Virus record (IMG/VR): IMGVR_UViG_3300048999_000192
Location: 64,001-128,000 of that record
Origin: a virus
DNA: 64,000 bases
Direction: 5' to 3' (one strand)
Shown here: positions 23,388 through 50,620 of the stretch, piece after piece
Layout of the letters: each line of letters starts with the position of its first letter
Position numbering within the stretch: position 1 is the first letter of the stretch
Position numbers and translations under genes: made by a program
Notes under the pieces: model-generated
Databases searched by the model: none
What the model was told of the DNA's origin: nothing
Seen by the model: only the letters and a program-made list of their open reading frames with translations

Positions 23388-25337
23388 ATGGGCGCAGAAG
23401 CGGTCAGGCGGCTACGCACCGCCGAGGGCCCAGAGCCCGGCGACGAGCCGACCGCTGAACCCATGCGCGCACAGCGCCGTGGACGCTCTAAGCCCTCCCG
23501 GGAGGACCTGAGGGTCCGGAACCGCACGCGACGCTCGTACGAGACGCCTCAGGCCCGTACGGCCGCCCTCCGCTGCCTCGCCTGCGGCTGCACCGGTCCC
23601 GCCGCCGACCGCTGTGCCGCCTGCGGCTCACTGGCCGTCCAGGCCAACTGGGAGACCGCCCTCGGCCACGGCACCGAGCGCCAGACCGACTGGGACGATG
23701 TCACCCAGGGCTGGAACATGGATCACGCCCGTATCCACCGGGCGATCACACTGCACCCCAGCTCCGACGTCTACGACAAGATCGAGGACCCCGACGTCCC
23801 GGACGAGGAGAAGGCCCAGCACCTGCTGAGCCACCTGCAGAACGGCGGGCGCTCCCTCGGTCGGCACTGGTCGACGGACCTGGACCACGCCAAGCGCGTC
23901 GCGCGGGACGAGGGCTGGTCGGCGATCGGCAACAACTCCTCCGACGACGAGGAGAACGAGTACAAGCTCCCGCTGTCGGTCATGGTGCACGCCAAGTTCC
24001 CCGAGCGGCACCACATCGAGACCGACCCCAGCGTGCTGGAGGAGCACCACGTCACCCCGTGGGGCGGCTCGGAGCACTTCAGCGACGAGTCCGAGGTCCC
24101 GCTGAAGCCGGACGCCAAGGTGCACGTGACGGGGCTGTCCTGGTCGACCAAGACCAACCCGCACCCCAGCGAGTGGACGACCCACCGTTACGACAAGGAC
24201 ACCGAGGCGCACGAGCAGGCGCAGGAGTCCGCGCGCCAGGAGCGCATGGACAACCTGAAGAAGAGCTTCAAGCACGAGGGCAAGCTGGCCAGCGGTGCGT
24301 TCCACGCCCAGCTCCCTCCAGATGCGCACGCGCGGGTGGTGGATGAGAGCCGCCCTGCCGGTGAGAGGGCCAAAGAGCTGCTCGACCACCTGGGCCAGGG
24401 CCACGGCAGCATCCACTGGAGCGAGGGCGCGACCAGCATGCCGCTGGGTCAGGCCAAGATGAGCGCCAACGCGCTGCACCGCAAGACGGGATCGCCAGCG
24501 ATCAGCGGGGAGCTGCGGGGGGTGACCCCCGAGGGCACGACCAAGTACGACGCGGAGCACGGCCTGTCGGGGATCAACCTGCCCATCCACGCGATGCGGT
24601 GGCAGGAGAGCGCACCCGAGCACCCGTACAAGTCGACCGAGCACGAGCACGAGTTTGGGAAGCCGATGACCCATCAGGCTCTGGTACTCGACTGTGAGGC
24701 CTGCGGCCACATGAGCCGTACGGCCTCCTCACGCTGCCGCGCCTGCGGGTCGCTCGCGCTCAAGACGGCCACCGTGCTGATGACCCAGATCGAGCGGGCC
24801 AACCCCGGCGACCAGATGCGCACCCCGCAGGGGCAGTCGGTGCACGTCAAGAAGATCCGCCCGCACGAGACCGACAACACCAAGGTCTACGTGGACACCG
24901 ACCTGGGCACCGCCGTGATGAGCCGTGGCACCGAGGTCAACCTCACCCAGGGGGAGCGCCAGCAGGAGCTCCCTAACTCGGGCAACCCCAGCGGCAACGC
25001 GGGCATGCTGCCCGGCGCCGGGCGCACACCGACGGGAGAGGGTGACGCCGGAGGCGGCGGCTACGCGGCACCACGCTGCCCGCGCGATGGCACCAAGATG
25101 GTCCAGCGCGGGAACACCTGGATCTGCCCCATCGACAACACCACCGCACCACTGTCCTCGGCTCCCGCCGGGATGCAGCCGACCAACCGCGAGACGGGCC
25201 AGATCCTGACCCGCTCGCCAGGACGCAAGCCCCCGCAGACACACCTGTGGGCCACCTATCACACAGCCGGACAGCCTCCGGCGATCGTCCGGCGGGCACG
25301 GCAGGTGCTCGACACCATGGAGGAGATTCGATCGTGA
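23388..25337 (+). CDS. Head-module polyprotein: Zn ribbons plus ADP-ribosyltransferase-like domain(s)
   Basis: CLACG/CAACG, IHRA..GRHWSTD..ESEVPL (R-S-E pattern), second degenerate copy; RTA/KTA junctions. Confidence 0.7.
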   Translation: MGAEAVRRLRTAEGPEPGDEPTAEPMRAQRRGRSKPSREDLRVRNRTRRSYETPQARTAALRCLACGCTGPAADRCAACGSLAVQANWETALGHGTERQTDWDDVTQGWNMDHARIHRAITLHPSSDVYDKIEDPDVPDEEKAQHLLSHLQNGGRSLGRHWSTDLDHAKRVARDEGWSAIGNNSSDDEENEYKLPLSVMVHAKFPERHHIETDPSVLEEHHVTPWGGSEHFSDESEVPLKPDAKVHVTGLSWSTKTNPHPSEWTTHRYDKDTEAHEQAQESARQERMDNLKKSFKHEGKLASGAFHAQLPPDAHARVVDESRPAGERAKELLDHLGQGHGSIHWSEGATSMPLGQAKMSANALHRKTGSPAISGELRGVTPEGTTKYDAEHGLSGINLPIHAMRWQESAPEHPYKSTEHEHEFGKPMTHQALVLDCEACGHMSRTASSRCRACGSLALKTATVLMTQIERANPGDQMRTPQGQSVHVKKIRPHETDNTKVYVDTDLGTAVMSRGTEVNLTQGERQQELPNSGNPSGNAGMLPGAGRTPTGEGDAGGGGYAAPRCPRDGTKMVQRGNTWICPIDNTTAPLSSAPAGMQPTNRETGQILTRSPGRKPPQTHLWATYHTAGQPPAIVRRARQVLDTMEEIRS

Positions 25338-27523: not shown

Positions 27524-28794
27524 CGACCGATCAGTTCGCGTCCCTGTGGACCGAGGCCTCCCGGGACGTGGAGCGCGAGAACGCGCTGCGTGCCGAGGCC
27601 CTGGCCAGTGCCAAGCTGGGCGCGGTTTGGCCCTTCTTCGCCCTGGCGCAGTCCAAGCCGGAGCTGGAGCATCGCAAGGCGCTGGCACGTGAGTCCCTGG
27701 AGGAGATCGCGGCCAGCACCGGCCTGCCGCTGGCCCGCATCGCCGAGATCATCGACCAGCACTTCACCCTGCTCGCCGAGGCCCGCATGTCCAAGCAGGC
27801 CGAGGAAGAGGAGGGCGGCCAGTGGGAGGTCGTCGACAAGGCTACGGACGCAAAGGTCGCAGGCCCTTTCGATGATCGGGAGAAGGCACAAGAGGCCATC
27901 GCGGACAACGACTCCGGGCTGCCTTCTTCCGAGCTGAAGATCGTGCCGGTGAACGAGTCCGAGGACGAGGGCGAGGAGAAAGAGGCCAGCCTCCGTCACC
28001 AGGCCATCCCCGAGGGCGAGAACATCCTGGCCGAGACGGTCAACGACGCCTCTGGTGCCTTCCCGGCCTCGGTCGAGAAGCTGCCCGAGCACGATGAGGG
28101 CCCGGACGCCAACATCCCGCCGGAGGCCTACTCCACGGTCAGCATGCCCCAGCCGGGCGACTCGGGTGCGAGCAACCCGCAGTCCATGGCGGTCAAGATC
28201 GACATGAGCGTGGCCGAGGCGCGCAAGATCATGCAGCTCGCACTCACCGGCAGTCGTAAGACCGCCGTCGGCGAGTACGTCGACCCGTCCCAGCAGCAGG
28301 GTCAGCAGGCCCCGATGCCGGACGCGCCGGAGTCGGCCACCGGGATGGACACCGGCATGCCGCCGGAGGGCCAGCCGACTCCGGGCCAGGATCCGGGTGG
28401 CCAGGTCGCCACCGACCCCTACCCGATGACCACCAAGCCCGCCCAGCAGCCTGGCGCGCCGGGCGGCGGCGGGGACATGGGCGGGGACACCGAGGGGGAC
28501 GGCGGAGACCCCGTCTCGGACCAGATCGACCAGGTCACCTCGGCGATTCGCAGGGACAACCCCGGGGTCAGCACGTCGGTCGCCAGGCGGGTCGCCCGCC
28601 AGGCCGTGGCCAAGATGCTGACGGCCGCCGGGAGCGACGGGATCGACTACACCCACCCGACGATCCCCAAGGCCGCCCCGGCGGGCGGCGAGGAGGACGA
28701 GGACGAGAGCCTGGCCGGTCACGCCGCCGAGACGGCCGGAGCCGGTGCCGCCCTGAAGGTCCTGCCCAAGGTTCTTCCGCTACTCGCCCTGTAG
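27520..28794 (+). CDS. Acidic putative head-assembly/internal protein
   Basis: GTGA-coupled; KQA, KEA and KTA motifs. Confidence 0.7.
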   Translation: MTTDQFASLWTEASRDVERENALRAEALASAKLGAVWPFFALAQSKPELEHRKALARESLEEIAASTGLPLARIAEIIDQHFTLLAEARMSKQAEEEEGGQWEVVDKATDAKVAGPFDDREKAQEAIADNDSGLPSSELKIVPVNESEDEGEEKEASLRHQAIPEGENILAETVNDASGAFPASVEKLPEHDEGPDANIPPEAYSTVSMPQPGDSGASNPQSMAVKIDMSVAEARKIMQLALTGSRKTAVGEYVDPSQQQGQQAPMPDAPESATGMDTGMPPEGQPTPGQDPGGQVATDPYPMTTKPAQQPGAPGGGGDMGGDTEGDGGDPVSDQIDQVTSAIRRDNPGVSTSVARRVARQAVAKMLTAAGSDGIDYTHPTIPKAAPAGGEEDEDESLAGHAAETAGAGAALKVLPKVLPLLAL

Positions 28795-28802
28795 GAGATG
28801 AC

Positions 28803-30790: not shown

Positions 30791-30792
30791 TC

Positions 30793-31653: not shown

Positions 31654-34600
31654 GTGCGTCCTGGGGAAGAGTCGGCTCGGTCCGACGCTGGCAAGCAGAC
31701 CGTCTGGCCGGTCGCTGTCGGCGGCGGCCTGGTGGACATGTGCGCCCACCACAAGACGATCCACGAGGGGCACTCCAACCTCGCCAACCAGATCGCCGCC
31801 CAGACCGGCCTGGCGCAGGAGGAGCACGAGGAGCTCACCCCGCACACCGGCACCTGCGTGGAGTGCAAGCGCCGCGCGGGCAAGGGCGAGCTGATGCACT
31901 CGCTCGACTCGGCGCTGCCGACCGGATATCGCAAGAAGCAGGATCAGAGCGACCGTACGCCCCGCAGGCCGTTCGAGCCGGGCAAGACCCGCACCAAGCC
32001 CCTGGAGCCCCTCCCGCCGTCTCTGAACGCCGTGCAGGCCTCCTCCGAGGAGATGCGCCCGCTGCCGGGAGCGCTCTACCACGTCACCACGGCCCGGGAC
32101 GCGGTGCTGGCCCACGGCCTGAAGAACCGCACCGAGCTCGGCCAGCAGTACGGCCACGGCCTCGGTGGCGGCCGGGACGACACGATCTCCCTGACGACCC
32201 ACCGGCCGACGGCCGAGCACCTGCTGCACTCCCTGCACGAGTACCACGACGTGCTCAACGGCAAGATCAAGCTGGCCGACCTGAAGGAGAAGGCCCGGCA
32301 GGGAGTCGGGGCCGAGAAGCCCTATGACTACATGCTGAAGGACCACGCTGACGAGGATCTCGCCGCCGCCGACAAGGGCCGGGCGATCGAGCACCGGATG
32401 CACGACCGCTCCGAGGTGGGCGAGGACTGGAAGCCCCTGGACGAGGGCATGCATGGCACCGGCCCCCAGGGGGAGTACCACCTCCACATGGCCTGGGACC
32501 GGCCGCTGGACCGCTCGGAGCTGCTCCACAAGCGTGATGACGTCTACAAGAAGTTCTCCTGGGGGCGTCAGGGCGCGGGTGGTCACCCCGACCCCCTGTT
32601 CATCGCCAACGACCCCGGCGAGTTCGTCAAGAAGGACCCGGGCCAGTTCGCCCTGATGCACGTGCGCCCTCACGAGGGAGCGCACGGGATCCAGATGAAC
32701 GACCGCACCGAGGGCACCGACGCGGGGGAGTGGCGGGCGCTGTCGGGCAAGGATCTCCACGTCGTGCACCACGAGGGCCGAGAGGCCATCACGCCCCGTA
32801 CGGCCGCCGCTGACCACCACGTCTTCTATCACGTCACGGACAATCCGAACTTCGAGCTGAGCACCACCCACCGGCCGCACCTGAACCTGGAGGGCGGTGA
32901 GGACGAGCACCGCGAGCCAGGCATCCACATGGCTGACCACGAGGGCATCAACCGCTGGATGGGCACCGGCGGGTACATCAGGCCGTACATGGTGGAGCTG
33001 CACGCCCACCCCGAGCTCGACGACCACCCCGACACCGAGCACGGCTTCGCCCGCGAGCGTTACGTCCCGGCCAAGCACTACGACAAGCTGAAGGTCCACC
33101 GCGTGATCCCGCTCGACGCCTGGGACCGCGAGCAGGGCGGTTATGGCCACATGGAGCAGTCGCTGGGCTCGGAGTACGACACCGGCGCGCCCATCGCCAG
33201 CTCACACGAGGACCGGCCCTACCGGCCCCGGACGCCCTACACCGGCCCGGACGCCCGCGAGATGACACCGGAGCAGCACCAGCACCACACCGACCGCTAC
33301 GACCGGTTCATGAGCGACCGCATCAGCCGTCAGGCCGCCTCGTATCCGATCAAGTACACCCGAATGACCCAGAACGGGTACGAGGACGTCGAGGACGAGA
33401 TCGAGGGCCCGCTGTTCCACGGCAGCCGCTCCAAGCGCCTGCAGCCGGGCGACATGATCACCAAGGGCCGCAAGACCAATCCCTGGGGCGACCAGGGCCC
33501 CAAGAGCCAGACGGTCCACTTCACCGTGCACCACGACACCGCGCGGGACTACGCCGACCAGGCGGGCGGCCACGTCTATGAGGTCGAGCCGACGGGGGAG
33601 TTCAAGCACGACTACTCCGGCGGCGACTTCAAGACCGCGCACCCGCTGCGCGTCGTGCGCATGGTGCCGCGTTCGGAGTGGGAGGCCTCCAAGGAGGCCA
33701 GCCGCCGTACGGCCATGACTCCGGAGCGCCGCGCCGAGATCGAGCGCATCCGGCAGGAGCGCAAGAACCGTCCCCGCCGCCCGGCCGGTCAGCCGCGCGC
33801 CGACGCGTTCTCGCACCTGTTCACGCCGATCCCCGAGCACGAGCTGGAGGAGCAGCGCCAGGCGCGTATGCCCAAGCCCGAGCCGATCAACGACAAGACC
33901 TACTCGATCGGCGACGTCAGCAAGCACTACGAGTGGGAGGGCTTCGACCCGTACGAGATCGAGCACCTCGTGCATCACCCGGAGCACGCCCAGTTCACCC
34001 ACGAGGACGTGCCGGTGCACAGCCTGCGCCACATCACCGAGCACGGCGAGCTCGTCAAGCCGCCGTCCTACCGCGACATCGCCGACCAGGGGGATGACGA
34101 GCAGGAGCGGCTCGGGGAGCTGGAGCGCGGGCACGACGACGGCGCCCACATCCCGCCCATCGTCGTCGTCCGCCACGGCGAGCACCACATCATCGCCGAC
34201 GGCTCCCACCGGGCGGCCATCGCGGCCGAGCGCGGCCACACCCACATCCCGGCCTTCGTCACCGAGCGGACGATCATGCCCAAGACCGGTCGCATGGGCG
34301 ATGGCGGCCCCGACCCATTCGAGCGTACGGCCGCGATGCACAACCCCAACGCCAAGGCGGGGCAGGCCGAGGACGAGTGGTACCACGGCAGCCCGCACGA
34401 CTTCGACAGCTTCAGTGACACCGGGTCAAGTAACGACACCGAGGACCACGTCAACCACTGGAACGTGCTCCTGGGCAACCACTTCACTGCGACCCACAAC
34501 GTGGCGCATGACTTCAGCCTGGGCCTGCACCACGCCTCGGACGCGAACGGCAACGACGACGCCGAGGAGCCGCTGGGCCACGTCATCCACGCCAGGCTGC

Positions 34601-36309
34601 ACATCAAGCGGCCCAAGGTCTACAAGTCCGAGCACGACATGGACCAGGAGGTCCACGAGCACGAGGTGAAGCGCGGCAACCTGCTCGACCCGCACCTGCC
34701 CGAGACGCCGCACGAGGACGCCGACGATGACGAGTGGGACGACTACTACGCCGACGCCGGGCACGCGCGGGTCTACCGGGGTGACAGCCATGGGCCCTTC
34801 GGCCCGAACGAGCCGGACCCGAACGTGGCTCACGGCTTCCACCCCAAGGCGACCGGCTGGCTGAACCACCACCCGGACAAGGAGGGCATCGCCGCCCGCC
34901 ACAAGGCCCGGCTGATCAAGCAGGGCTACGACGGCATCGTCTACGGCAATGAGTTCGAGCGGGCCGACGCCGGGGGCAAGGAGAAGTCCGCCATCGCCTT
35001 CCATCCGCATCAGGTCGAGATCACCCAGCACCACTACGGCCGCACCGGCCAGTGCCTGAACCCCGAGGAGTGCGCCCGGCAGCGCGCGGCCGACCACGAC
35101 CCGGGCCAGCTCGCGCTACCCATGGAGCACACTTCGGCCCTGACGGCGGGCGGCGTCAGCCGTCTCGCACTGCCGCTTCCGGCGGAGTGCTGGAGCCGGT
35201 ACCGCTCGACTCTGGGCGACCGTACGGCCTCCTGGGACGACGATGACGAGTGGAGCGAGGACGAGACCTTCCACTGCCCGGCGTGCGGCGAGGACCATGA
35301 GGACGAAGAGACGCGCGACAACCACATGATGGCCCATACCGACTGGGACAGGGTGCATCCCAAGCTTCCCGACACCCTGCACCGGGGCATGGCCGTCTCG
35401 CTGCCGGACGAAGTCCATGACGTCGTCCACGATGAGTCGCGGCCGTCGGCCGAGCGGGCGCAAGCGCTGGCCGACCACGTCAAGAAGCGTGGGCTGGGCA
35501 TGCACTTCACGGACGACAAGCAGCAGGCCGCGCACTACTCGCACGTCTACCACCAGCCTGGCGACACCCACGTGATCGTGCACTCGCGCAAGCCGGACAT
35601 GCATCACATCGAGACCGACCCCGGTGAGCTCGAATCCCAGCAGGTCATCGGTTATGGCCAGCACGATGACAACGAGATCCCGATTCGCTCCGGCGCGCCC
35701 GTGCACGCCACCGGGATCTCCTGGAAGCACGAGGATCCCAAGGCCGACTGGCATACGCACAACTTCGGAAGGTCCATGGAAATGACCGCGATGCGCAAGC
35801 AGGCCCACGACAGCGGTGACGGTCAGCGGATCTTCCACTGCCCGTTCTGCGGTGCTGGCCAGGTGATCGCCCGTTCGGACGGCACCACCGAGTGCGAGTT
35901 CTGCCACCAGGCCTTCACGGTCCAGGTGCAGCCGCAGTTCAACAGCTTCCCGCAGACCGACCCGACCACCGGCCTGCCGATCATGATCCCGGGCATGCCG
36001 GGCCAGATCGATGCCCCTGGCACGCCGCCAGGGGCTCCAGGAGGCGCTCTGCCGCCCGGAGCGGACGAGGAGTCGGACAACCCGTTCGCGGCCGACAGCG
36101 GTGACGAGAGCGGCCCTCCCGGGGCCGATGACGGTGGGGACGACTCCGGCGATGGCGGGGACGATAACAAGCCGGACTTCCTGAAGGGCTCCAGCTTCCG
36201 GACGGCCTCGGGCGACCTGCTCACCGAGGCGGCCTACACCCGCCACCTCGCGCTGCGCTTCTCGGCCAACCCTGAGAAGATGATCGAACTGCTGCGGAGC
36301 GGGCGATGA
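31654..36309 (+). CDS. Polyvalent polyprotein with multiple ADP-ribosyltransferase-like domains, ParB/Srx-like domain and Zn ribbons
   Basis: LYHVT..ISLT; FYHVT..GIHM; LFHGS..VHFT..VYEVEPTG..PLRVV (Arr-like); IPPIVV..ADGSHR (ParB/Srx); WYHGS..GNHFT..GYDGIVY (ART-PolyVal-like); LHRG..GMHFTD..NEIPI; CPFCG..CEFC. Confidence 0.85.
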   Translation: MRPGEESARSDAGKQTVWPVAVGGGLVDMCAHHKTIHEGHSNLANQIAAQTGLAQEEHEELTPHTGTCVECKRRAGKGELMHSLDSALPTGYRKKQDQSDRTPRRPFEPGKTRTKPLEPLPPSLNAVQASSEEMRPLPGALYHVTTARDAVLAHGLKNRTELGQQYGHGLGGGRDDTISLTTHRPTAEHLLHSLHEYHDVLNGKIKLADLKEKARQGVGAEKPYDYMLKDHADEDLAAADKGRAIEHRMHDRSEVGEDWKPLDEGMHGTGPQGEYHLHMAWDRPLDRSELLHKRDDVYKKFSWGRQGAGGHPDPLFIANDPGEFVKKDPGQFALMHVRPHEGAHGIQMNDRTEGTDAGEWRALSGKDLHVVHHEGREAITPRTAAADHHVFYHVTDNPNFELSTTHRPHLNLEGGEDEHREPGIHMADHEGINRWMGTGGYIRPYMVELHAHPELDDHPDTEHGFARERYVPAKHYDKLKVHRVIPLDAWDREQGGYGHMEQSLGSEYDTGAPIASSHEDRPYRPRTPYTGPDAREMTPEQHQHHTDRYDRFMSDRISRQAASYPIKYTRMTQNGYEDVEDEIEGPLFHGSRSKRLQPGDMITKGRKTNPWGDQGPKSQTVHFTVHHDTARDYADQAGGHVYEVEPTGEFKHDYSGGDFKTAHPLRVVRMVPRSEWEASKEASRRTAMTPERRAEIERIRQERKNRPRRPAGQPRADAFSHLFTPIPEHELEEQRQARMPKPEPINDKTYSIGDVSKHYEWEGFDPYEIEHLVHHPEHAQFTHEDVPVHSLRHITEHGELVKPPSYRDIADQGDDEQERLGELERGHDDGAHIPPIVVVRHGEHHIIADGSHRAAIAAERGHTHIPAFVTERTIMPKTGRMGDGGPDPFERTAAMHNPNAKAGQAEDEWYHGSPHDFDSFSDTGSSNDTEDHVNHWNVLLGNHFTATHNVAHDFSLGLHHASDANGNDDAEEPLGHVIHARLHIKRPKVYKSEHDMDQEVHEHEVKRGNLLDPHLPETPHEDADDDEWDDYYADAGHARVYRGDSHGPFGPNEPDPNVAHGFHPKATGWLNHHPDKEGIAARHKARLIKQGYDGIVYGNEFERADAGGKEKSAIAFHPHQVEITQHHYGRTGQCLNPEECARQRAADHDPGQLALPMEHTSALTAGGVSRLALPLPAECWSRYRSTLGDRTASWDDDDEWSEDETFHCPACGEDHEDEETRDNHMMAHTDWDRVHPKLPDTLHRGMAVSLPDEVHDVVHDESRPSAERAQALADHVKKRGLGMHFTDDKQQAAHYSHVYHQPGDTHVIVHSRKPDMHHIETDPGELESQQVIGYGQHDDNEIPIRSGAPVHATGISWKHEDPKADWHTHNFGRSMEMTAMRKQAHDSGDGQRIFHCPFCGAGQVIARSDGTTECEFCHQAFTVQVQPQFNSFPQTDPTTGLPIMIPGMPGQIDAPGTPPGAPGGALPPGADEESDNPFAADSGDESGPPGADDGGDDSGDGGDDNKPDFLKGSSFRTASGDLLTEAAYTRHLALRFSANPEKMIELLRSGR

Positions 36310-36476
36310 AGGTCTGGGTCCTGGTCGACTTCACCGGCCCCTCCGGCCAGCGGTACACCAAAGGCAGCCAGCTCACCCTCCCCAATGACACGCCCGAGCA
36401 GCAGGCCTACGTCTCGTCACTGATCCGCTACGGCATCGTGACGACGGCCAAGCCCGCGACAGGAGCCACCACGTGA
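36306..36476 (+). CDS. Small hypothetical protein (56 aa, not in ORF track)
   Basis: ATGA/GTGA-coupled between polyprotein and portal. Confidence 0.65.
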   Translation: MKVWVLVDFTGPSGQRYTKGSQLTLPNDTPEQQAYVSSLIRYGIVTTAKPATGATT

Positions 36477-38671
36477 CCGACGACTTCGCGAACCGCATCG
36501 CCGGTGTCCAGAGCGCCATGAAGGCCAAGTCCCCGTTCTCTCGTAAGCGGGCGCAGGACACCGGCACCGGCGAGGCGGCCGAGATGCGCCGCAACCGCGC
36601 CGTGAACAAGAAGGTCGCCGCCGCAGGGTCCGGCAGCGACATCTCCTTCGCTACCGGCCGCCCGAGAGATCCCCTTTTCTACTGGAAGCAAAATAACCTT
36701 CCATATGACTTCGGTAAGCATGAGGAGCTGCGGAAGGTAAGAGCATTCTGTCGCCTTCTGTACCAGACTGACTCAATTATCGGTTCGGCGATCGACATCT
36801 ACTCCAAGTGGCCGCTGATCGGCATGGAGCTGTCGTGCAAGGACCAGAAGCTGACCGACTTCTACACCAACCTTTTCGGATTCGGTGAGGACGCCGACGA
36901 CAGCTCGCTCGACTACGAGGCCTTCCTGCCCCGCGTCGGCCGGGAGTACTGGACCGTCGGTGAGGCGTGGCCATTCGCCACGTTCAACCCGATGCTCGGT
37001 GTCTGGGAGGACGAGGAGCTCCTGCAGCCGGACGACGTCGATGTCCAGCGCAGCCCGTTCCTGAAGGACCCGAGGTTCTTCATCCGGCTGCCCGAGACCA
37101 TCCGCCGCCTGATGCAGACCCGCCAGCCAGCCTGGGAATACAACAAGCTGATGCAGGCGTATCCCGAGCTGGTCAACTACACCCACGAGAACCAGCTCAT
37201 GCCGGTCTCCAACATCCTGCTGCAGCAGATCAAGTTCGAAGGCGACACGTTCAACCCGCGCGGTGTCCCGCTGCTGACCCGCGCCATGCGCCCGGTGATG
37301 CAGCAGGAGATGCTCAACGCGGCCATGGACGCCATCGCCGACCGGATGTACACCCCGCTCATCCTGGTCAAGCTCGGCGCGTCCGCCTCTGACCTGGGCA
37401 CCAACGCCCCGTGGATCCCGACCGGTGATGACCTCGCCGATTTCGAGGAGGCGCTGGACGCGGCGCTGGCCGCCGACTTCCGCGCGCTGATCTACAACTT
37501 CGCGATCGACATCGAGTCCGTGTTCGGCCGGGAGCAGATGCCCGACCTGACGCCGGACTTCGAACGACTCGAAGACAAGATCCTCCAGACGTTCGGCCTG
37601 TCCCGGACACTCCTGACCGGTGCCTCGGCCGGTGAGACCTACGCCGCCGACGCGCTGAACCGCGACCTGATCACCCAGCTCCTGACGCACTACCAGAAGC
37701 TGATCAAGCATCACTGGCGGCAGCGGGCGCTGGTCGTCGCCGAGGCCCAGGAACATTTCGACTATGACGTCCGCAATGGGAAGCGCTACGTCAAGATGGA
37801 AGAAATCCTCGAAGTCGACGAGGAGACCGGCGACGAGCGCATCATCGAGCAGCCCAAGCTGCTGATCCCCGACCTGCACATGCAGACGATGAACCTGCGG
37901 GACGAGGAGCAGGAGCGCCAGTTCATGGAGGCGCTGCGTCAGGGCGGCGTGCCGATCTCCATGAAGACCAGGGTCCGTAACCTCCCGATCGACCTGGACG
38001 AGGAGATCGAGCGCAGCCAGGAGGAGGCCGTCCAGCTCATCGTCTCCGAGGCCGAGACCCGCAAGCGTGCCTACCAGGCGCTGCGCAACAACGGCCTGCC
38101 GATCCCGGACGACCTGCGCACCGAGTTCGAGGCCCTCGCCCAGCAGGCGCAGCAGCCCAGCCCGGCACTGTCGGCTGGCCAGCCGCAGATGATCCCCCAG
38201 CTCGGCCAGGACCCGCAGGCCGCCGACACGCCCAACCTCGCCCCGACGCAGCAGGACTTCCAGAACGACCCGCAGGACGAGTCCTCGGTGATGGCCCCGG
38301 TCATCCCGATGCCGATGGCTCCCCCGGGCGGAGAGGAAGAGGGCGACGCCCGGCCGGAGGAGTCCGACGAGGAGCGCGACGGCATGCCCACCTCGGCCGT
38401 GCTCTACCGGAAGGCCCAGAGCATGCGCACGGTGGCGGCCACCCGGCACGCCGACGTGGTCGAGGCCGAGCAGAAGCTGGCCCGCGAGCAGGCCTGGGCC
38501 GAGTGGGAGGTCAATCGCGTCGAGGCCGCCGCCAACGGCACCGACATGCCCGCGACGCCGCCAGAGGACCTGACCGCCTACACGGTGCCCGCCCAGATGC
38601 GCGGCCCGATGCACATCGGCCAGCGGCGCAACCTCGATCGGGACTGGAAGGCCGCGCTCGACGACGACTGA
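36473..38671 (+). CDS. Portal protein
   Basis: 732 aa; IGSAIDIYSKWP, PRGVPLLTRA, AIADRMYTPLILVKLG motifs as recalled for cluster-C-like portals; position in head module. Confidence 0.8.
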   Translation: MTDDFANRIAGVQSAMKAKSPFSRKRAQDTGTGEAAEMRRNRAVNKKVAAAGSGSDISFATGRPRDPLFYWKQNNLPYDFGKHEELRKVRAFCRLLYQTDSIIGSAIDIYSKWPLIGMELSCKDQKLTDFYTNLFGFGEDADDSSLDYEAFLPRVGREYWTVGEAWPFATFNPMLGVWEDEELLQPDDVDVQRSPFLKDPRFFIRLPETIRRLMQTRQPAWEYNKLMQAYPELVNYTHENQLMPVSNILLQQIKFEGDTFNPRGVPLLTRAMRPVMQQEMLNAAMDAIADRMYTPLILVKLGASASDLGTNAPWIPTGDDLADFEEALDAALAADFRALIYNFAIDIESVFGREQMPDLTPDFERLEDKILQTFGLSRTLLTGASAGETYAADALNRDLITQLLTHYQKLIKHHWRQRALVVAEAQEHFDYDVRNGKRYVKMEEILEVDEETGDERIIEQPKLLIPDLHMQTMNLRDEEQERQFMEALRQGGVPISMKTRVRNLPIDLDEEIERSQEEAVQLIVSEAETRKRAYQALRNNGLPIPDDLRTEFEALAQQAQQPSPALSAGQPQMIPQLGQDPQAADTPNLAPTQQDFQNDPQDESSVMAPVIPMPMAPPGGEEEGDARPEESDEERDGMPTSAVLYRKAQSMRTVAATRHADVVEAEQKLAREQAWAEWEVNRVEAAANGTDMPATPPEDLTAYTVPAQMRGPMHIGQRRNLDRDWKAALDDD

Positions 38672-38719: not shown

Positions 38720-41700
38720 ATGCGGATGCAGCGTACGGCCCGGCAGCACACCACGCTCCAGGCGACGGCAGGGGTCAACAGCGAGGACTACTTTGACTTC
38801 CGGCCCAAGCAGCGGGTGATGACGGCCGACGGGTACCCGGGCCGCGTCGAAGCCGTGCACGATGGCCCGCACGCCGGGAGCGAGGCGTACGAGGTCGTCC
38901 TGGACGGCGGCATGGGCGGTGGGCTGTACGCCTCCAGCCAGCTCCACGCGCTCGCTGACGACGCTCACACGGCCGCCGGGGACTACCCCGAGCTGGAGGA
39001 CGTCCTCTCCGCCCGGCCCGACCCGGCCAAGCAGGTCGTGATGGCCAAGAAGGCCGCGCGCAAGAGGGCGTCGACCCTCCCCGACGATCACCCCGACAAG
39101 GTCTACCTCCGCTTCGGCCACTGGCCGAAGAACGAGCGTTCCGCGAATGGCGTCACGGGCCACCCAGAGGACGGGGTGAGCGTCTACGACCTTGACCACA
39201 AGGGCGAGCCCATGGACCCGGACCCCAACCTCAGCCGGGGCCACGAGCATGACGAGTCTTGCGATCCGGACTGCGATCTCGATAGCTGGAACGAGGACTA
39301 CGGCAACGACACCCGCGAGGAGATGAACGGCCGGGTCTATCGCGCGGAGAAGGCGCGGGCCAACGGTCACGACTACCGGGGCGAGGTCGGCCACCTGGTC
39401 AAGGGCAAGATGACGGGCATCGGCCACGATGGTGAGCCGCTGCTGAACAACGTCAAGCGCGTCGGTGACTGGATCGACCACCGGCACATGTTCATCCCGA
39501 CGGCGAGCCCGCACCGGCTGGCCAGGGGTGAATACGACGAGGACTACGAGCCGCCGTCGTCCAAGCTGGCCACCACCCAGAACGGCACCCGGATCGACGG
39601 CCACGGTGAGGCCCCGCACGAGGTGCGCGCCAAGGACCCCAACGGCTACGACGCCAAGAGCACCGAGGGCGACCCGGACCCGCTCATGTCCAAGCCGCTG
39701 ACCAAGAAGGACGAGGTCGGCGCGCACGGGGGCGAGCTCGGCAAGGGGATGTCCGGCGTCTCCTTCGAGGGCGCGATGTCCCCCATGCAGAAGCAGAAGA
39801 TCGAGGACCGCGAGGACGCCCGGCAGGACGTGGTCGATCAGCATTCGCAGGTGAACGACGCCCGGCGCGACCGCACCGACGTCGGCGACGTCCAGCGGGT
39901 CGAGGACCCGGCGTACGCCAAGTACCTGCAGTCCCTGAACGCGCTCACCGTACGGGCCGACTGGGACGACCCGGAGCACGGCGCGGAGTGGCGGCGTCCC
40001 TGGGACGTGATGCCCGTCCACCACGACGACGGCCGCTGGCACGACCCCGAGCTGGACAAGAACTACGAGCACGACACGGCCGAGCCTGAGGCCGACGACT
40101 CCTCCACGGCCCACGCCGCGCACCTGCACCTGCCGAACCCGGAGGAGGACCCGGACGCGCTGGCCAGCCACATGGTCGACGCACACGGCTACGACCTGGA
40201 CAAGGTCAAGCAGATGATGATGGTCCACCGGCTGATGAGCGGCCAGCACGAGATGGACCACGAGACCGAGCCGGGTGGCATGGGCCTGCACCCCGACGAC
40301 TTCTCCCTCCCGCACGACCACCCGGACCGCTGGCTGGAGCACGGGTCGATCCCGGGGCCGGAGGGCGGCGTCGAGCAGGCCGGAGCCCGTGGCGACACCG
40401 GCCACGCGCTCGACAGCAGCAGGCCGTTCGAGCTCAAGCCCTGGCATATGAACTACTCGCTGAGCTCGCTGGCCGACCCGTACGCCCTGGTCGCCTCGGC
40501 CGCCCAGGACCGGGACCTGGGATTCCAGCTCACCGCCGCCTGGACCGACGTTCGCAACAAGGCCAAGCGGATCCGGTCAGAGGGCAAGGTCAGGATCACC
40601 CTGGCCAGTGACGGCCTGGTGGCTGGTGAGGTGCAGGGGGACCACCAGACGTATGAGACCGGCATCCAGCGCCTGCCCGGCTCCCGCCACGGCGTGGCCA
40701 CCTGGAGCTGCGGCTGTAAGTGGGGCGCCTACCACTGGGGCGCCAGCGACGACTTCAGCCGCTTCGCCGGTCGGATGTGCTCTCACGCCCTGGCCCTGCA
40801 GTACGAGGCCCAGAGTCGGGGGATGTTCGGCAAGACCGTCGAGGTCGACACCTCCAAGCCGGACTGGGTGCCGCCGCGCGTGGTGGTCAAGTACAACCCC
40901 GACACCGGCCACAGCGACTTCGCCAAGTCCTCCTCACTGGTCACCCCCGAGCTGTCCCCGCTGCAGATCTTCTGCGCGTACGCGGGCAACGACGGGGAGA
41001 CCGCCGACCAGATCACCTGCCTGCTGCACACGGCCGGGCTGGTCGAGGGGTACTCCAACAGCCCGTGGGGCGAGCCGATCGCCGAGGTGCCGCCCAAGCC
41101 GTACGGGGCGACCCAGCCCGCCAACAAGTGGGAGGACCCGGGCAGCGCCGGGTTCCTCGCCACGCCCGACCCCGAGGACTGGGGCGGTCTGGGGCAGAAC
41201 AACCAGATGTACTCCACGTCCAGCCTGGACGAGGCGGTGTTCGAGCCCGTCCTGGCCAGTCCCCAGGGGGCGTATGAAGATCAGGACAGTCCTGCCGATC
41301 CGGAGGGCCTGGAAGCGACCCTGCACGACACTCCCGAGCCAGCTCTTCCCGAGACCGACGGCGGCCGGGAGGACATGGTCGGCGAGCACGCCGAGGACCT
41401 CACGCCGGACGACCAGTCGATGATGACGGTCGGCAACCAGATGGGCGGGGCCGACGAGGTCCTGGACGAGACCCAGAACACCACCCCGCAGGACCTGGAC
41501 GACGTCGTGGCGCGCTTCCAGGCCTCCGCCGGGGCCAAGGCCATCATGGCCGACGCCGGGACTCCCAGCGGGCCTGCAGCGCGCGAGGGGGCCTCCGCCG
41601 CGCCCTCGGACGGCGACATCGCCGCCCACGCGCGCCAGGTGCTGGCCCTGAAGGCCTTCAGCCCGGCCGAGCAGGCCTCCCTGATCAACGAGGGCGTCGG

Positions 41701-45368: not shown

Positions 45369-45373
45369 CTCTA

Positions 45374-45400: not shown

Positions 45401-45431
45401 GGCGGAAACCCTCTCTCCCCGAAGGAGACCC

Positions 45432-45935: not shown

Positions 45936-46018
45936 GTGCGTGACGTCCTGAGAGCCTTCAGGTAGCTTTGGGGGAGAGCACCGATCGACCCGCCCCCGGG
46001 TCCGGCTGTGCACCCCCA

Positions 46019-46052
46019 GAAGAGCCCCTGCCACCCCCGGCAGGGGCTCTTC
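46019..46052 (+). terminator. Hairpin terminator ending the early island
   Basis: 14-bp stem GAAGAGCCCCTGCC/GGCAGGGGCTCTTC. Confidence 0.7.
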
Positions 46053-46088
46053 GCTGTGCAGGCCCCTCTCACCCCGAGGAAGAGGTGA
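46053..46088 (+). promoter_or_regulatory. Putative late promoter
   Basis: GCTGT-N21-GAAGAGGTGA. Confidence 0.75.
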
Positions 46089-46102
46089 CAGAGGGGAAGG
46101 TC

Positions 46103-49100
46103 ATGCTGCGGAAGATCGCGACGCTGGAAACGCTGGAGGCGTACCGGGTCCCGGCGCACGCCGACGCACGCGCCCTGCGCAAGGCCGCCCACCGGGTGAG
46201 CTTCGAGTACACCCCCCGCCCGGGGTACCTCTACGTGCGTTCGCGGGCCATCAGCTCCCGGTGCAACGACAACTTCGACGAGTTCCCAGCCGAGGAGATC
46301 GCGAAGGCCTACGCGACCTTCAAGGGCAAGCCGGTGTTCGTCAACCACCACAACGACGACCACCGGCGGATGCGTGGCGTGATCATCGACGCCGCACTGC
46401 ATCAGGATCGCAACCCCGACGGCACCCCGGACACCTGGGCCGAGGTCCTGATGGAGGTCGACGCCAAGACCTTCCCCAAGCTCGCCAAGGCGATCCTGGC
46501 CGGTGAGGTCGACCGTACGAGCATGGGCTGCGACGTCCAGCTCTCGGTCTGCTCGGCGTGCGGCAACAAGGCCACCAACCCGGCGGAGTACTGCCAGCAC
46601 ATCCCGGCCATGAAGGGCCAGCGCATCTTCCGCGCCACCGCCTCCGGCCAGCGCGAGGGGCACCTGGTCCGGGAGATCTGCTACGGCCTGGGCTTCTTCG
46701 AGAACTCCCTGCTCGTCGAGGAGCCCGCCGACCCCACCGCCTACTTCCTCGGCGTGGACGACCGTGGCATGAGGGCGACGGCCACTCAGCACGGCGAAGA
46801 GCCGCCCGGATGGATCAACGACGTCAAGGACCAGGCGGATGAGCTGGCGAGCCGTAACGGCCACAGCATCTCCTGGAAGTACCGAGGCGAGCCCCAGTGG
46901 AAGAGCAGCTCGGGTTACGTCGCAGGCTGGCAGGGCGAATGCGCCAACGATGGGTGTGATGCTCCGGCCAGTCAGACCAGCCGGGCTCACACGGACAAGG
47001 TCCGCACCATCAGCATCCGCGAGGACCAGCCCGGCGAGCTGAAGGACATGATGCCGCCGTTCCTGCGGCGACGCTGCAAGGGGACCACGGTGGAGTCCAG
47101 CCGGAAGACGGCGGCCGAAGATCACTGGGCCATGCCGATCTTCCAGCACTTGAAGGACGCGCACGGCCTGGATGACGATCAGATCGCCGAGGGCATGCTC
47201 GCCGCCGGAGCCGAGCCGAACATGAACCAGGGCATCAAGCTCGACCATCTGTTCCACGCCCACAAGAACCTGCACGGCGGGGACTACCAGACACCGACCG
47301 GCGCGCAGCGGCACGGGCACACCCCCGAGGACCCGCTGATCTCCAGCGAGTTCAGGCCCTCACGCATGCAGATGAATCAGTCGGAGATCTACAACGACAA
47401 GCCCGCCTGGGGACCGAGGAGTCTCGGCCCGTACCGGATGCGGGCGGACGAATACGGCGATTTCAAGCCTCTTCGGCAGTCGCAGAACGCCAAGACGGCC
47501 GACGTCCGCCACAACCCGCAGTACGAGGGCACCCATTGCCTGATGTGCGGCGACCCGGTTCGCTGGAATTCCAACCCGGCCAAGCAGAGCCTGCCCAGCG
47601 GGGGCTGGTACCACCACGACAGCATCAAGCGCGATCACCACGCGCTCCCGGCTGACCCGGAGGCCGTGATGAACGACGTCCCTCGCCAGGACGCCCAGCG
47701 AGACCAGATCGACGCGCAGATCCGCGAGCAGTACGGCTTCGGCCCCAAGCGGCACAAGGACATGCCGCTGGACCCCTTCGTATCCGCCTACGCGCCCGAG
47801 CTGGACGAACTCGGCCCGGTCGAGGCCGCCGCCGGTCCGAAGTACCCCGACCCGGCCGATCACCCGTTCTTCAAGAAGAACCCGATCAACCATCAGCACA
47901 TCGTCGACACCTACAACGAATCCGACGAGGGCACGCGGGCGCAGGGCAAGCGCTGGTACCCCGACGCGCACATCCTGGCCAAGGCGATCGACCCCGAGGG
48001 CAACGCGGCGCGCGGCGCTGGCGTGCTGTCGGCCTACTCCCCACAGACCTCCTGGCCGGTCAACGCCATGAACGCCGCCCGGTCCCTGCAGCGTGGCAAG
48101 GCCATGCAAAAGGGCGAGGGCCAGATCATGGCCAGTCACGCCAAGAGCGCCCAGCGCATCATCGAAGGCGAGCACCACAGCGACGTCTTCAAGGGCCCCA
48201 AGATCCGGGCGTTCGCCCACCTGATCGAGCACGGCGGTGATGACCACTCCGTCGTGGTCGACCGGCACGCGCTCTCGGTGGCCATGGGCAAGCGCGTCAG
48301 CAAGGACGACCTCGCCGACGCGCCGCTGAGCACCCCGCACTACTACGGCCACGTCGAGCGGGCCTACCAGGACGCGGCCAAGCAACTGTCCGGCCAGCAC
48401 GGTGAGACGATCCACCCGCACGAGGTGCAGGCGACCACCTGGCTGCAGCAGCAGAAGCGCAACGCGGTCGACAACGAGACCGCCCGGGGCGGCCAGGGCA
48501 AGGGCCTGATCACCCGGGACAAGAACGACTGGCGCGACTGGGAGAACTACCACCAGAAGAACCACCCGGACCTGCCCAAGAGCCTGCACACCACCAACCC
48601 GCACGCCCCCAAGACCGAGGCGATGCGCAAGGGTGCGCCGTTCGCGGGCTATGAGGACTTCGCGGCGTGTGTCGCGGCCAACCAGGACAAGGACGACCCC
48701 GAGGCCTACTGCGGCTCGATCAAGCACAAGGTCGAGGGTGCCCAGCACACCGCCGCGCACAGGGTCTACGTCGACCAGGCCGAGGGCAGTCACGGCCGGA
48801 TGGTCACCTTCAGCGGCGAGGACAAGGGCGGCTACCTCAGCCGGGGCGACGGCACGTGGATGGCCGAGAACGACAACGGCTCGGTGGTGCACGAGCACCG
48901 CGACCACAAGCGGGCCCTGCGCGGCCTGGCCGATCACTACGGCCTGACCGGCGATCTCGACGTCGAGTACACACACGAGGGCACCGGGAACAGGAAGAAC
49001 TTCACCGTCCCGGGCAAGACGGCCGCGCTGAACGACGTCGTGGCCCCGCCCGAGGTCGACACGCTGCGGGATGAGGAGTGCCCGGTCTGCGGTGAGGTCG

Positions 49101-50620
49101 AGGTCTACGACGGGGAGCGGTGCCCGGTCTGCGGGTTCGTCGCGCCGCCGGAGATGTTCCGCGACCCGGACCTGGAGATGGCCAAGTCGATCGACCTGCG
49201 TCAGGACCAGCAGGCGCAGGCCGGTGACCCGGCGCCAGGCCAGGCCAACCCGGACGTGCCCGGTGGCGGCCTGGTCGACCCGTCCCAGCTCGGCGATGAC
49301 CCGCTGGCCGACCAGCTCCAGCATCCGGACCAGCTCGGCCCGAATGGCGAGATGGGCGAGCCCGGTACGCCAGGCGACGGCACGCCGGACCTGTTCTGCC
49401 CCGCCTGCGGCGAGGGCTTCGACGCGGGCCAGCCGATGACCACCGATGGTGACCCCGCCACGCTGGACGCCAGCGGCCCGGCCGAGGGCACCCCGTGCCC
49501 GAACTGCGGGATGTCCACCCTGCTCTCCCCGAACGACATGGAGGGCATGGGCATCGGCCCCGACGGCGAGCAGGCCGTCGCTGAGGAGGCCGAGGAGATG
49601 GGCGACCGGCCGATGGATGCCGGAACCCCCGAAGAGGACCCGGAGGCTCCCCAGGAGGGTGAGGGGCCGCCAGAGCAGCAAGAGGAGGAGGGGCCGCCGA
49701 CCGAGGAGGACGACGATTCCGACGAGCCTGCTGTGGACGAGGACGACCAGCCCTCGAAGAAGCGAGACGACAAGAATGCAAAGGGAGCGTCCATGAGCAA
49801 GTCCGTCGAGGCGGCGCTGGCGGCGAACACGGCCGCTGTCGGTAGCCTCATGCGCGAGCTGCGCATCGTCCGAGCGCAGAACGACCTGATCGCCAAGGCA
49901 GCCGGTCTGGAGGGCGAGTTCTCCGAGATCCGCCGTCAGGCCGACATCAACAACCCGGCCAGCCCCGTGCCGGACCCGGGCGAGCAGGCCCCGTCCGAGA
50001 CCACGGAAGAGGCGGTCACCCCTGAGGCGGCCGACGACCCGCAGCGTCCCGGCATGACCCCGGGCTCTGTCGGCGGTGTCCCGGCCGAGCAGGTCGACAC
50101 CCCGCTGCGCCCTGGCGTCACCCTCCCGGCGGCACCGGCCACCAACCTGGTCGACGTCACCGCGCCGGTCGCGGGCACCAACACCGGCGAGCTCTCGCCG
50201 GAGCAGACCCGCATCGAGACCGACGTGCGCGTGGGCGACCCGATGGCGAACGCGAACAGCGACGAGTCCAAGATGTTCCCGTGGACCATCGGTGCTCAGA
50301 ACGCCAACCGGACCATGGCCTCCATGCGTCTGGCCGAGCTGCGCATCGCGGCCAACCTCGCCCCTGCGGGCGACCGGTTCGCGCTGGCGGCCTCGATCGA
50401 GACCGACGCCAACCTCCCGGACGCCGCCCTGGCGACCGAGATCCGCACCCTGGAGGCCGTCTCCCGTACGGCCGCCCGCCAGCCGCGCCCGACCAACCTG
50501 GTCCCGCGTGCGGCGGCCACCGAAGGCCGTACGGCCCCGAGCCTGGCTCCCCAGCCGGTCGGTGCCCCGGTCGGCGGCGGCGGGTACGACGACACGGCCG
50601 ACTCCGACCTGTTCTTCTGA
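46103..50620 (+). CDS. Capsid maturation (prohead) protease fused to cargo domains, Zn ribbons and C-terminal scaffold
   Basis: GKPVFVNH, RTSMGC, FFENSLLVEEPADP protease motifs; internal RWY..SAYSPQTSW..GPKIRAF..VVDRHA..VQATTW domain; CPVCG repeats; upstream of capsid genes. Confidence 0.85.
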   Translation: MLRKIATLETLEAYRVPAHADARALRKAAHRVSFEYTPRPGYLYVRSRAISSRCNDNFDEFPAEEIAKAYATFKGKPVFVNHHNDDHRRMRGVIIDAALHQDRNPDGTPDTWAEVLMEVDAKTFPKLAKAILAGEVDRTSMGCDVQLSVCSACGNKATNPAEYCQHIPAMKGQRIFRATASGQREGHLVREICYGLGFFENSLLVEEPADPTAYFLGVDDRGMRATATQHGEEPPGWINDVKDQADELASRNGHSISWKYRGEPQWKSSSGYVAGWQGECANDGCDAPASQTSRAHTDKVRTISIREDQPGELKDMMPPFLRRRCKGTTVESSRKTAAEDHWAMPIFQHLKDAHGLDDDQIAEGMLAAGAEPNMNQGIKLDHLFHAHKNLHGGDYQTPTGAQRHGHTPEDPLISSEFRPSRMQMNQSEIYNDKPAWGPRSLGPYRMRADEYGDFKPLRQSQNAKTADVRHNPQYEGTHCLMCGDPVRWNSNPAKQSLPSGGWYHHDSIKRDHHALPADPEAVMNDVPRQDAQRDQIDAQIREQYGFGPKRHKDMPLDPFVSAYAPELDELGPVEAAAGPKYPDPADHPFFKKNPINHQHIVDTYNESDEGTRAQGKRWYPDAHILAKAIDPEGNAARGAGVLSAYSPQTSWPVNAMNAARSLQRGKAMQKGEGQIMASHAKSAQRIIEGEHHSDVFKGPKIRAFAHLIEHGGDDHSVVVDRHALSVAMGKRVSKDDLADAPLSTPHYYGHVERAYQDAAKQLSGQHGETIHPHEVQATTWLQQQKRNAVDNETARGGQGKGLITRDKNDWRDWENYHQKNHPDLPKSLHTTNPHAPKTEAMRKGAPFAGYEDFAACVAANQDKDDPEAYCGSIKHKVEGAQHTAAHRVYVDQAEGSHGRMVTFSGEDKGGYLSRGDGTWMAENDNGSVVHEHRDHKRALRGLADHYGLTGDLDVEYTHEGTGNRKNFTVPGKTAALNDVVAPPEVDTLRDEECPVCGEVEVYDGERCPVCGFVAPPEMFRDPDLEMAKSIDLRQDQQAQAGDPAPGQANPDVPGGGLVDPSQLGDDPLADQLQHPDQLGPNGEMGEPGTPGDGTPDLFCPACGEGFDAGQPMTTDGDPATLDASGPAEGTPCPNCGMSTLLSPNDMEGMGIGPDGEQAVAEEAEEMGDRPMDAGTPEEDPEAPQEGEGPPEQQEEEGPPTEEDDDSDEPAVDEDDQPSKKRDDKNAKGASMSKSVEAALAANTAAVGSLMRELRIVRAQNDLIAKAAGLEGEFSEIRRQADINNPASPVPDPGEQAPSETTEEAVTPEAADDPQRPGMTPGSVGGVPAEQVDTPLRPGVTLPAAPATNLVDVTAPVAGTNTGELSPEQTRIETDVRVGDPMANANSDESKMFPWTIGAQNANRTMASMRLAELRIAANLAPAGDRFALAASIETDANLPDAALATEIRTLEAVSRTAARQPRPTNLVPRAAATEGRTAPSLAPQPVGAPVGGGGYDDTADSDLFF

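Follow-up and report, generated by a model that had tools for sequence, protein, structure and literature searches.

In the phages T4, phiKZ and SPN3US, internal head proteins are processed by prohead proteases that recognise motifs of three residues (PMC10052503). Polyvalent proteins, which join several enzymes in one giant chain, are predicted to be packaged in phage heads (PMC5512222, PMC9503650). Here we describe six large open reading frames (ORFs A to F) in the head module carried by a 64,000-nucleotide stretch of viral DNA (hereafter the window), which comprises bases 64001–128000 of a single 155,098-bp contig with 68% G+C. A first-pass annotation of the window had presented these ORFs as a candidate new system of packaged effector polyproteins that share a [KRH][TEQ]A cleavage motif and include the prohead protease itself. 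The label of a new system is not justified, since both packaged polyvalent proteins (PMC5512222, PMC9503650) and processing by prohead proteases (PMC10052503) are known. What appears to be undescribed in the literature searched is a lineage-wide [KR]-T-A|[SA] code across several head proteins (the bar marks the predicted bond), the use of such a motif at the joints of shuffled effector modules, and a protease of the T4 gp21 fold that itself heads a polyprotein. No report on proteolysis or virion proteomics of Bxz1-type phages was found in the same literature.

The polyvalent proteins described previously (Iyer et al. 2017, PMC5512222; the 2022 NAD/ADPr survey, PMC9503650) resemble those of the window in being giant multi-enzyme proteins with ART-PolyVal (ART, ADP-ribosyltransferase), Arr-like, ParB, NUDIX and GNAT domains, encoded beside portal or head genes. 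Extensive shuffling of modules and a predicted delivery with the DNA are further points of likeness (PMC5512222). Their processing was ascribed in that work to built-in zincin-like peptidases, whereas none was detected here; instead, several head proteins share a three-residue code, and one of these polyproteins contains the prohead protease. T4 gp21, which acts on IPI–III and Alt, phiKZ gp175 and SPN3US gp245 (PMC10052503, PMC5694885) have the same fold as the protease of ORF F and are likewise encoded in the head module. In those systems propeptides and internal head proteins are trimmed at a short P3/P1 motif, and the packaged ART Alt is one of the substrates. Their motifs end in Glu (L/I-x-E, S/A/G-x-E and A-x-E), whereas P1 is predicted to be Ala and P3 to be basic in the present case. 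The protease of the window also differs in its fusion to more than 1200 residues of cargo and core sequence, the major capsid protein (MCP) seems to be uncut, and the putative substrates are multi-module polyproteins.

The cleavage sites of the herpesvirus assemblins have the form V/L-x-A|S. The assemblins are similar to the present protease in fold (Z 7.0–8.3), in the predicted Ala|Ser bond and in the fusion with scaffold sequence; the differences are the basic rather than hydrophobic P3 residue, the different domain of life of the host, and the effector cargo, which herpesviruses do not have. In MuF-toxin fusions and in the phage P1 proteins DarA, DarB, DdrB and Hdf (PMC12810830), effector enzymes also enter the head via a near-portal morphogenesis protein, to which they are fused or on which they depend, and serve at an early stage to counter host defences. 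The carriers belong to other families, however, and the proteins of the window combine several modules each with a putative cut code; no MuF or Dar homology was found here.

The best reading of the locus, to which we assign a probability of about two in three, is that the large ORFs encode capsid-internal polyvalent proteins and that the prohead protease cleaves these at Ala|Ser sites similar to those of assemblin. We favour it because an order-specific motif under selection, its position at module joints, and a protease of the gp21 fold encoded in the same module come together.

An order-specific peptide motif in the head-module proteins

All 17 coordinates at which the first-pass annotation placed a motif encode the expected tripeptide in frame. 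The six ORFs contain 46 [KRH][TEQ]A tripeptides, against 16.5 ± 4.0 expected from residue shuffles, and Ala or Ser follows in 21 cases against 2.8 expected, so that the ORFs are indeed punctuated by the motif and the preference for the following residue is real. There is no motif excess in the other 142 called proteins (35.9 k residues; 83 against 72, or 14 against 11 when followed by Ala or Ser). An unbiased tripeptide scan placed RTA first (13 against 2.25, p 8e-7), and in a per-protein ranking over the whole genome ORFs B, D, A, C and F hold five of the top six places. The choice of these ORFs is therefore not the source of the signal. ORF E alone is weakly enriched (3 against 1.26), and a 1966-residue giant ORF upstream of the window shows no [KRH][TQ]A enrichment, having two four-residue matches and a rank outside the top 22 proteins. 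The motif class as originally drawn proved too broad: RTA, KTA and RQA are enriched 4.7–5.8-fold and HTA, KQA and HQA 2–3-fold, but no enrichment was found for the Glu variants REA, KEA and HEA.

The motif recurs in related phages. RTA occurs nine times in gp87, gp93 and gp94 of Catera, against 1.5 expected, and RTAG and RTAA are the top non-repeat tetrapeptides there. The large head proteins of Phrappuccino and Myrna contain 12 and 9 [KRH][TQ]A[AGS] sites (1.2 and 1.4 expected, respectively), and no such site is present in the MCP of either phage or in its neighbour of ~180 residues. Among public proteins, 572 share the protease domain of ORF F; in the best 120 of them KTA ranks first (97 contexts against 31), and RTA is found in 76 contexts against 42, where only unrelated sequence contexts were counted and the expectation was taken from composition. 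In a different protein family, the 101 public relatives of the ORF D cargo part, KTA ranks first, TAA second, RTA fourth and TAS eighth among 4265 tripeptides. A residue-order control gave 6.2 times the median for KTA against 0.6–2.2 times for its permutations, and 3.6 times for RTA against about 1. The codons of the motif vary freely in Catera and the IMG/VR relatives, which indicates that the constraint is on the peptide. The sequence logo reads [SA]-[RS]-[KR(H)]-T-A followed by Ser or Ala, and the refined site is predicted to be [SA]-[RS]-[KR(H)]-[T>Q]-A|[SA]. These analyses led us to conclude that the motif is a selected, order-specific peptide code that is confined to head-module proteins, conserved in position and lineage-wide.

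A 250-residue protein encoded outside the head module (7480–8232, minus strand) ranks fourth genome-wide; it has three [KRH][TQ]A sites where 0.26 would be expected, and RTA|S and HQA|S are among them. It could be a further substrate, or its sites could be due to chance.

Position of the motif at module joints

A BLAST comparison with 13 IMG/VR loci whose portals are 58–66% identical to that of the window showed that modules are exchanged freely between carriers. The copy of the Arr-like module in an E-type carrier of another phage (L003) is 55% identical and is bounded by KTA|A and KTA|N, copies of the HIETD module elsewhere are closed by HTA|S, HTA|A or KTA|H in their respective carriers, and a 43-residue mini-module that ends at HTA|A in ORF F lies between RTA|M and KTA|Q in another phage. 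Over all pairwise alignments, homology breakpoints within 10 residues of a motif were 1.5–1.7 times as frequent as expected, against 0.6–1.3 times for seven control patterns, and the distance from breakpoint to motif has a sharp peak at offset 0. A motif lies within 45 residues upstream of DUF7178 in 32% of homologues, compared with 14% at random.

Conserved blocks start directly after the motif Ala in ORFs A, B, D and E, with unrelated sequence upstream. The KTA|TVLMTQIERA site of ORF A keeps its position in homologues as HTA, HLA or KLA, and A-type carriers retain [KH][TL]A|TVLNTQIERL. Orthologues of ORF E retain H[TL]A|[AS]DDYPEL, corresponding to HTA|AGDYPEL at 38966. The C-terminal module of ORF D follows K[QVT]A in 7/7 aligned relatives, again with unrelated sequence upstream. 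At such fixed sites the second motif position is looser than in the overall statistics, with Gln, Val or Leu in place of Thr. In addition, five of the six ORFs have a site 20–62 residues from the C-terminus, where cleavage would take off short terminal peptides.

Structure prediction with AlphaFold2 (AF2) of ORF D residues 352–1551, based on 46 sequences, yielded an Arr-like, an ART-PolyVal and a HIETD domain, all three with confidence. The low-confidence stretch ahead of the ART-PolyVal domain ends with site 891, and site 1382 is the first residue past the HIETD domain; sites 1190 and 1516 are located in linkers, and site 559 in a short low-confidence stretch ahead of the Arr domain. Sites 660 and 1418, which had not been listed as boundaries, fall inside predicted folds. 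In the model of ORF F residues 1–1200 (65 sequences), sites 882 and 972 are at a domain edge and in a linker, respectively. The idea that the motif falls at domain boundaries holds for most sites, which are at predicted domain edges or precede conserved blocks, but not every boundary has one.

The protease of ORF F and the proposed cleavage of its neighbours

The protease domain of ORF F is modelled with high confidence (residues 37–222; predicted local distance difference test score, pLDDT, 84–94). Its best match in the PDB is T4 gp21 (5jbl_B; Z 9.1, root-mean-square deviation 3.1, 126 residues aligned), followed by herpesvirus proteases with Z 7.0–8.3 (4v08_A, Z 8.3; human cytomegalovirus protease, Z 7.0). 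Sequence comparisons gave a mixed picture: the domain matches phrog_18299, 'head maturation protease' (5e-22), and tblastn found annotated prohead core proteases of jumbo phages (1e-8), but the domain has no Pfam match and no PDB match by sequence or profile. The earlier identification of one ORF as the prohead protease is thus supported by PHROGs, tblastn and fold. His82 and Ser140 are invariant in alignments of 7, 121 and 65 sequences, which include the protease of a Dickeya jumbo phage, and from this invariance we predict that they form the catalytic pair. No peptidase family other than this protease was detected in the six ORFs with Pfam, PHROGs or NCBIfam. Among the 120 homologues, 52 have a motif site, often in tandem, within 60 residues past the end of the protease domain, and in 44 of them the distance is 10–20 residues; this is where a site for self-release would be expected. 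Homologues of ORFs F and D carry NUDIX, GNAT, ParB_N, HNH, 2H-phosphoesterase and LAGLIDADG domains.

These observations suggest the following course of events. The large ORFs around the portal would encode capsid-internal proteins, in which interchangeable enzyme modules (Arr-like and PARP-like ARTs, ParB/Srx-like, and the glycosylase-like DUF7178) are fused to head components. ORF B, the end module of ORF D, and the conserved or terminal blocks of ORFs E and F may be the head or core components that bring the proteins into the prohead. Inside the prohead, the N-terminal serine protease of ORF F would cut after the Ala of the refined motif, thereby trimming short terminal peptides and separating some, not all, of the modules. 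The resulting pieces would be retained in the head and pass into the host together with the DNA, in the manner of T4 Alt and the internal proteins, and they may act on the host there. The original proposal was too strong in supposing that every domain is freed, as many joints have no site. Its suggestion that Zn-ribbon or acidic ends bring the proteins into the prohead finds partial support, in that the C-terminus of ORF D is a conserved head module with a Zn ribbon and an acidic stretch, which stands alone beside the portal in some relatives and may serve in entry.

Several results weigh against cleavage by the ORF F protease. The proteases of the gp21 clade characterised so far cleave behind Glu rather than Ala. 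The MCP and a small neighbour such as the 184-residue protein beside it are typical protease substrates or scaffold elsewhere. In this phage, neither has a conserved site, and the HQA at residues 40–42 of the MCP is not conserved in the MCPs of Catera, Myrna and Phrappuccino. Only some module joints have a site, and many edges are without the motif. The downstream edge of DUF7178 shows no motif excess. Longer homologues do not have more motifs than shorter ones (rho 0.15). In ORF D, seven of the ten sites lie at or next to low pLDDT, against a baseline of 44%, and the coincidence with low-confidence stretches is thus suggestive only. Finally, AF2 gave no usable model for residues 265–515 of ORF F, the region that includes sites 335 and 464.

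The reading that comes next is that the motif marks joints that are not cut, either as a peptide docking or targeting the proteins to the portal, scaffold or shell, or as a favoured linker or recombination scar at which modules can be exchanged without harm, and that the proteins are full length in the head. The absence of the motif from some joints would fit this, as would the 9-nt word CGTACGGCC shared by most RTA sites of this phage, a possible microhomology for exchange, and the polyvalent proteins of the N4 vRNAP type, which are packaged uncut (PMC5512222). We nevertheless regard it as rather unlikely. The freely varying codons in Catera and the IMG/VR relatives argue for selection on the peptide, and a three-residue pattern with Ser or Ala at P1′, tandem copies after the protease domain and sites near the C-terminus all resemble a protease site.

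Somewhat less probable still is a cut by another enzyme, either a host protease or an unrecognised peptidase within the polyproteins, or at another time such as after injection. HExxH strings are present at residue 340 of ORF D and residue 510 of ORF E, and in the literature on polyvalent proteins built-in peptidases are the preferred explanation, with cleavage after injection considered possible (PMC5512222). Glu specificity, as known for the gp21 clade, also points in this direction. On the other hand, the domain searches described above detected only the ORF F protease, and the motif tracks F-type proteases across distant hosts (Mycobacterium phages and Streptomyces-linked contigs). Moreover, Ala|Ser is the bond cleaved by the herpesvirus proteases, which share this fold.

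We consider it very unlikely that the motif is a modification site, for example for Thr phosphorylation by a basophilic kinase or for ADP-ribosylation. The Thr next to a basic residue and the ARTs encoded in the same proteins would suit such a role, but Gln, Val and Leu replace Thr at positionally conserved sites, and modification gives no obvious reason for a position at joints and before conserved blocks. Chance, or a composition rich in Ala, Thr and Arg in a 68% G+C genome, is hardly credible: these residues are common and the ORFs were chosen after the motif had been seen, but the shuffles, permutation controls, genome-wide ranking and four independent replications exclude it.

Returning to cleavage by the ORF F protease, we can tentatively extend the proposal to the clade of actinophages that comprises the Bxz1-type phages and the ~155-kb Streptomyces-linked ones, although we consider this extension unlikely. 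The clade would combine a T4-type protease with a herpesvirus-like Ala|Ser specificity and use [KR]-T-A|[SA] as a portable joint, such that any enzyme module spliced into any head-anchored carrier is still released in the capsid. Such a joint would explain the free exchange of ART, NUDIX, GNAT, ParB and glycosylase-like modules between carriers. If cleavage is confirmed, sequence alone would suffice to predict which cargo the mature virions contain for hundreds of actinophages, including relatives of phages considered for mycobacterial therapy. It would also show how polyvalent proteins are processed in the absence of a built-in peptidase, and the maturation proteases of phages and herpesviruses would be linked not by fold alone but also by specificity. 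Foreign proteins could be loaded into a phage head by a simple rule, and the injected ART, NUDIX and ParB modules would become testable as early anti-host or anti-defence factors.

Carriers, cargo modules and genome setting

The features of the window are collected in the table below. The six ORFs are present as listed by the first-pass annotation, and the starts at 25334 and 46103 agree with those of homologues; the database call for ORF D begins 28 residues later. The end of ORF D is 164 nt from the start of the portal gene, and ORFs E and F lie between the portal and MCP genes.

Features of the head module and recurrent 9-nt word in the window (bars mark predicted bonds)
Feature	Position	Strand	Remarks
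ORF A, 649 aa	23388..25337	+	carrier with Zn ribbons and HIETD-type ART-like module
ORF A sites	RTA|A 23556; RTA|S 24717; KTA|T 24762	+	
ORF B, 729 aa	25334..27523	+	conserved internal head protein, family unassigned; most motif-rich protein of the genome (rank 1)
ORF B conserved sites	HTA|ATDW 25523; [KR][EQ]A|ASGL 25760, 26300; K[QKR]A|D 26579	+	
ORF C, 424 aa	27520..28794	+	acidic middle; 4 [KRH][TQ]A sites
ORF D, 1551 aa	31654..36309	+	polyvalent cargo protein directly upstream of portal
Arr-like ADP-ribosyltransferase, D 562–687	33337..33714	+	between RQA|A 33328 and RTA|M 33706
ParB/Srx-like module (lead only), D 688–893	33715..34332	+	ends at RTA|A 34324
ART-PolyVal (PARP-like), D 894–1192	34333..35229	+	between RTA|A 34324 and RTA|S 35221; Pfam
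HIETD module, D 1193–1384	35230..35805	+	between RTA|S 35221 and KQA|H 35797
D C-terminal head-protein module	35806..36309	+	HDSGDG start, Zn ribbon, Pro-rich, acidic, RTA|SG 36199, 33-aa helical tail 36208–36306
Portal	36473..38671	+	phrog_2833, E 6e-149; candidate N-terminal site KVA|AAG 36611–36619
ORF E, 1022 aa	38720..41788	+	conserved N-terminal, central and C-terminal blocks and variable insert; orthologue of Catera gp93
ORF F, 1505 aa	46103..50620	+	prohead protease fused to variable cargo and conserved C-terminal part
ORF F sites	47105, 47492, 48746, 49016, 50465, 50528	+	
Prohead protease domain, F ~30–230	46190..46792	+	invariant His82 and Ser140 (in TSMG); Cys/His insert
DUF7178 module, F 598–790	47894..48472	+	all-helical; Pfam 1e-35; pLDDT 90–98
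Major capsid protein, 331 aa	51641..52636	+	phrog_2522, 6e-103
CGTACGGCC as in-frame RTA	23556, 24717, 32797, 33706, 34324, 35221, 38732, 50465, 50528		
CGTACGGCC elsewhere	4870/4873, 18697(-), 21213(-), 50525(-), 61478		

The six ORFs differ in how far they are conserved. ORF B is 31–39% identical to eight relatives across its full length, and the conservation of ORF C is limited to the N-terminal ~88 residues. The 102 homologues of ORF D (853–2715 residues) have shuffled ART, Arr, ParB_N, NUDIX, GNAT and 2H-phosphoesterase domains. The C-terminal module of ORF D occurs as a separate protein of 224–274 residues beside the portal in four of the loci (L002, L003, L008 and L010). With Arr-ms, ART-PolyVal and further modules in one chain beside the portal and head genes, ORF D has the make-up and setting of a polyvalent protein. 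Several D-like polyvalent proteins carry LAGLIDADG (PF14528) domains, suggesting inteins or homing endonucleases inside the cargo genes.

Two ADP-ribosyltransferase-like segments, of a kind that the first-pass annotation had named among the cargo, were recognised by both Pfam and fold. The Arr-like module scores 31.4 bits against Pfam Arr-ms (cut-off 25), and its fold matches 9iaf (Z 10.7) and 9iba (Z 9.7) with 26–34% identity, as well as 2hw2 (Z 9.8). It is not an Arr equivalog, scoring 20 bits with NCBIfam rifampin_ARR against a cut-off of 130. In the AF2 model (model numbering), a site at residue 540 is followed without a gap by the ART-PolyVal domain, which begins at 541 and matches the PARP/tankyrase fold with Z 7.3–7.8. 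The same fold also matches 9k3a_B, a capsid-internal pre-ejectosome chain of cyanopodophage A4 (Z 8.0, 145 residues aligned), and Anabaena phage A-4L has a tblastn match to DUF7178 of ORF F. The ejection proteins of podoviruses may therefore contain modules of this kind.

The remaining modules are assigned with less confidence. The HIETD module is a confident AF2 domain (model residues 851–1030) with low-confidence linkers on both sides and is possibly an R-S-E-type ART; no stand-alone form was found among shorter proteins, and the ESM Atlas gave no usable lead (DUF3626 at 0.77). Residues 688–893 of ORF D have look-alike clusters in the ESM Atlas at 0.95–0.96, some of which are named ParB/Srx or carry ParB_N. 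This segment has no Pfam match at E<5 and low AF2 confidence, and the ParB/Srx-like assignment is a lead only. In the ORF F model the confident helical region around DUF7178 spans residues 570–835, and its fold matches MagIII (Z 8.2, 166/217 aligned), OGG1 (Z 7.7), AGOG (Z 7.3) and AlkA (Z 5.8). Such Z values are common for helical domains, so the resemblance to HhH-GPD glycosylases is likewise to be taken as a lead. A 47-residue stretch of the ORF F mini-module (residues 834–880; 48605–48745) ends in DPEAYCGSIKHK; it shares 84% identity with a module in another actinophage carrier and 57% with a protein from an archaeal virus, Halorubrum tailed virus 4.

The head module was identified by the portal and MCP genes, and the window is best explained as containing this module from an actinophage of 155 kb with kinship to the Bxz1-type mycobacteriophages. 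Among named phages, those of the Bxz1 type (cluster C of the mycobacteriophages) and some that infect Gordonia and Rhodococcus are nearest, and to these the portal is ~40% and the MCP 56–62% identical; the latter range covers the MCPs of Catera, Myrna and Phrappuccino. Catera has the same gene order (giant protein, portal, a few small genes, two giant proteins, a protein of ~180 residues, MCP), its gp93 and gp94 being the counterparts of ORFs E and F. A megablast search of 20 kb against GenBank phages gave no match. The giant proteins flanking the well-conserved MCP share just short blocks with those of cluster C, so the shell is strongly conserved whereas the cargo inside it is replaced over time. 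Closer homologues number in the hundreds and are found in soil metagenomes and on contigs of ~150–157 kb in Streptomyces assemblies; because of these contigs, Streptomyces is the likely host. One such contig with an ORF F homologue is annotated as a plasmid, and the phage family may persist extrachromosomally, as a phage-plasmid or in a carrier state.

Two DNA words recur in the window. In this phage nine of the 13 RTA sites are written CGTACGGCC, even though CGT accounts for 9% of Arg codons and ACG for 30% of Thr codons. The window contains 15 copies of the word, whereas dinucleotide shuffles predict 0.76. For the whole genome the count is 30, compared with ~7.5 from an order-3 Markov model, which places the word 45th among ~100,000 9-mers. 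It is also found on both strands and in other frames, and two copies form the palindrome GGCCGTACGGCC. In relatives the word is rare and there is only a slight CGT bias. At the joints it may provide the microhomology by which modules are exchanged; alternatively, it may cause a translational pause or be a site of DNA binding or modification. A DNA-level origin of the motif was rejected for the lineage as a whole, given the codon variation in relatives, but may hold for the 9-mer of this phage.

The second word is the AT-only palindrome ATTTTAAAAT, often extended to GATTTTAAAATGAT, which is present at 11767, 14519, 15735 and 43556 on the plus strand, that is, four times in the window against 0.00 expected. 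Counted over both strands of the 68% G+C genome, the 10-mer occurs 22 times, and the palindrome is probably a promoter or regulator site.

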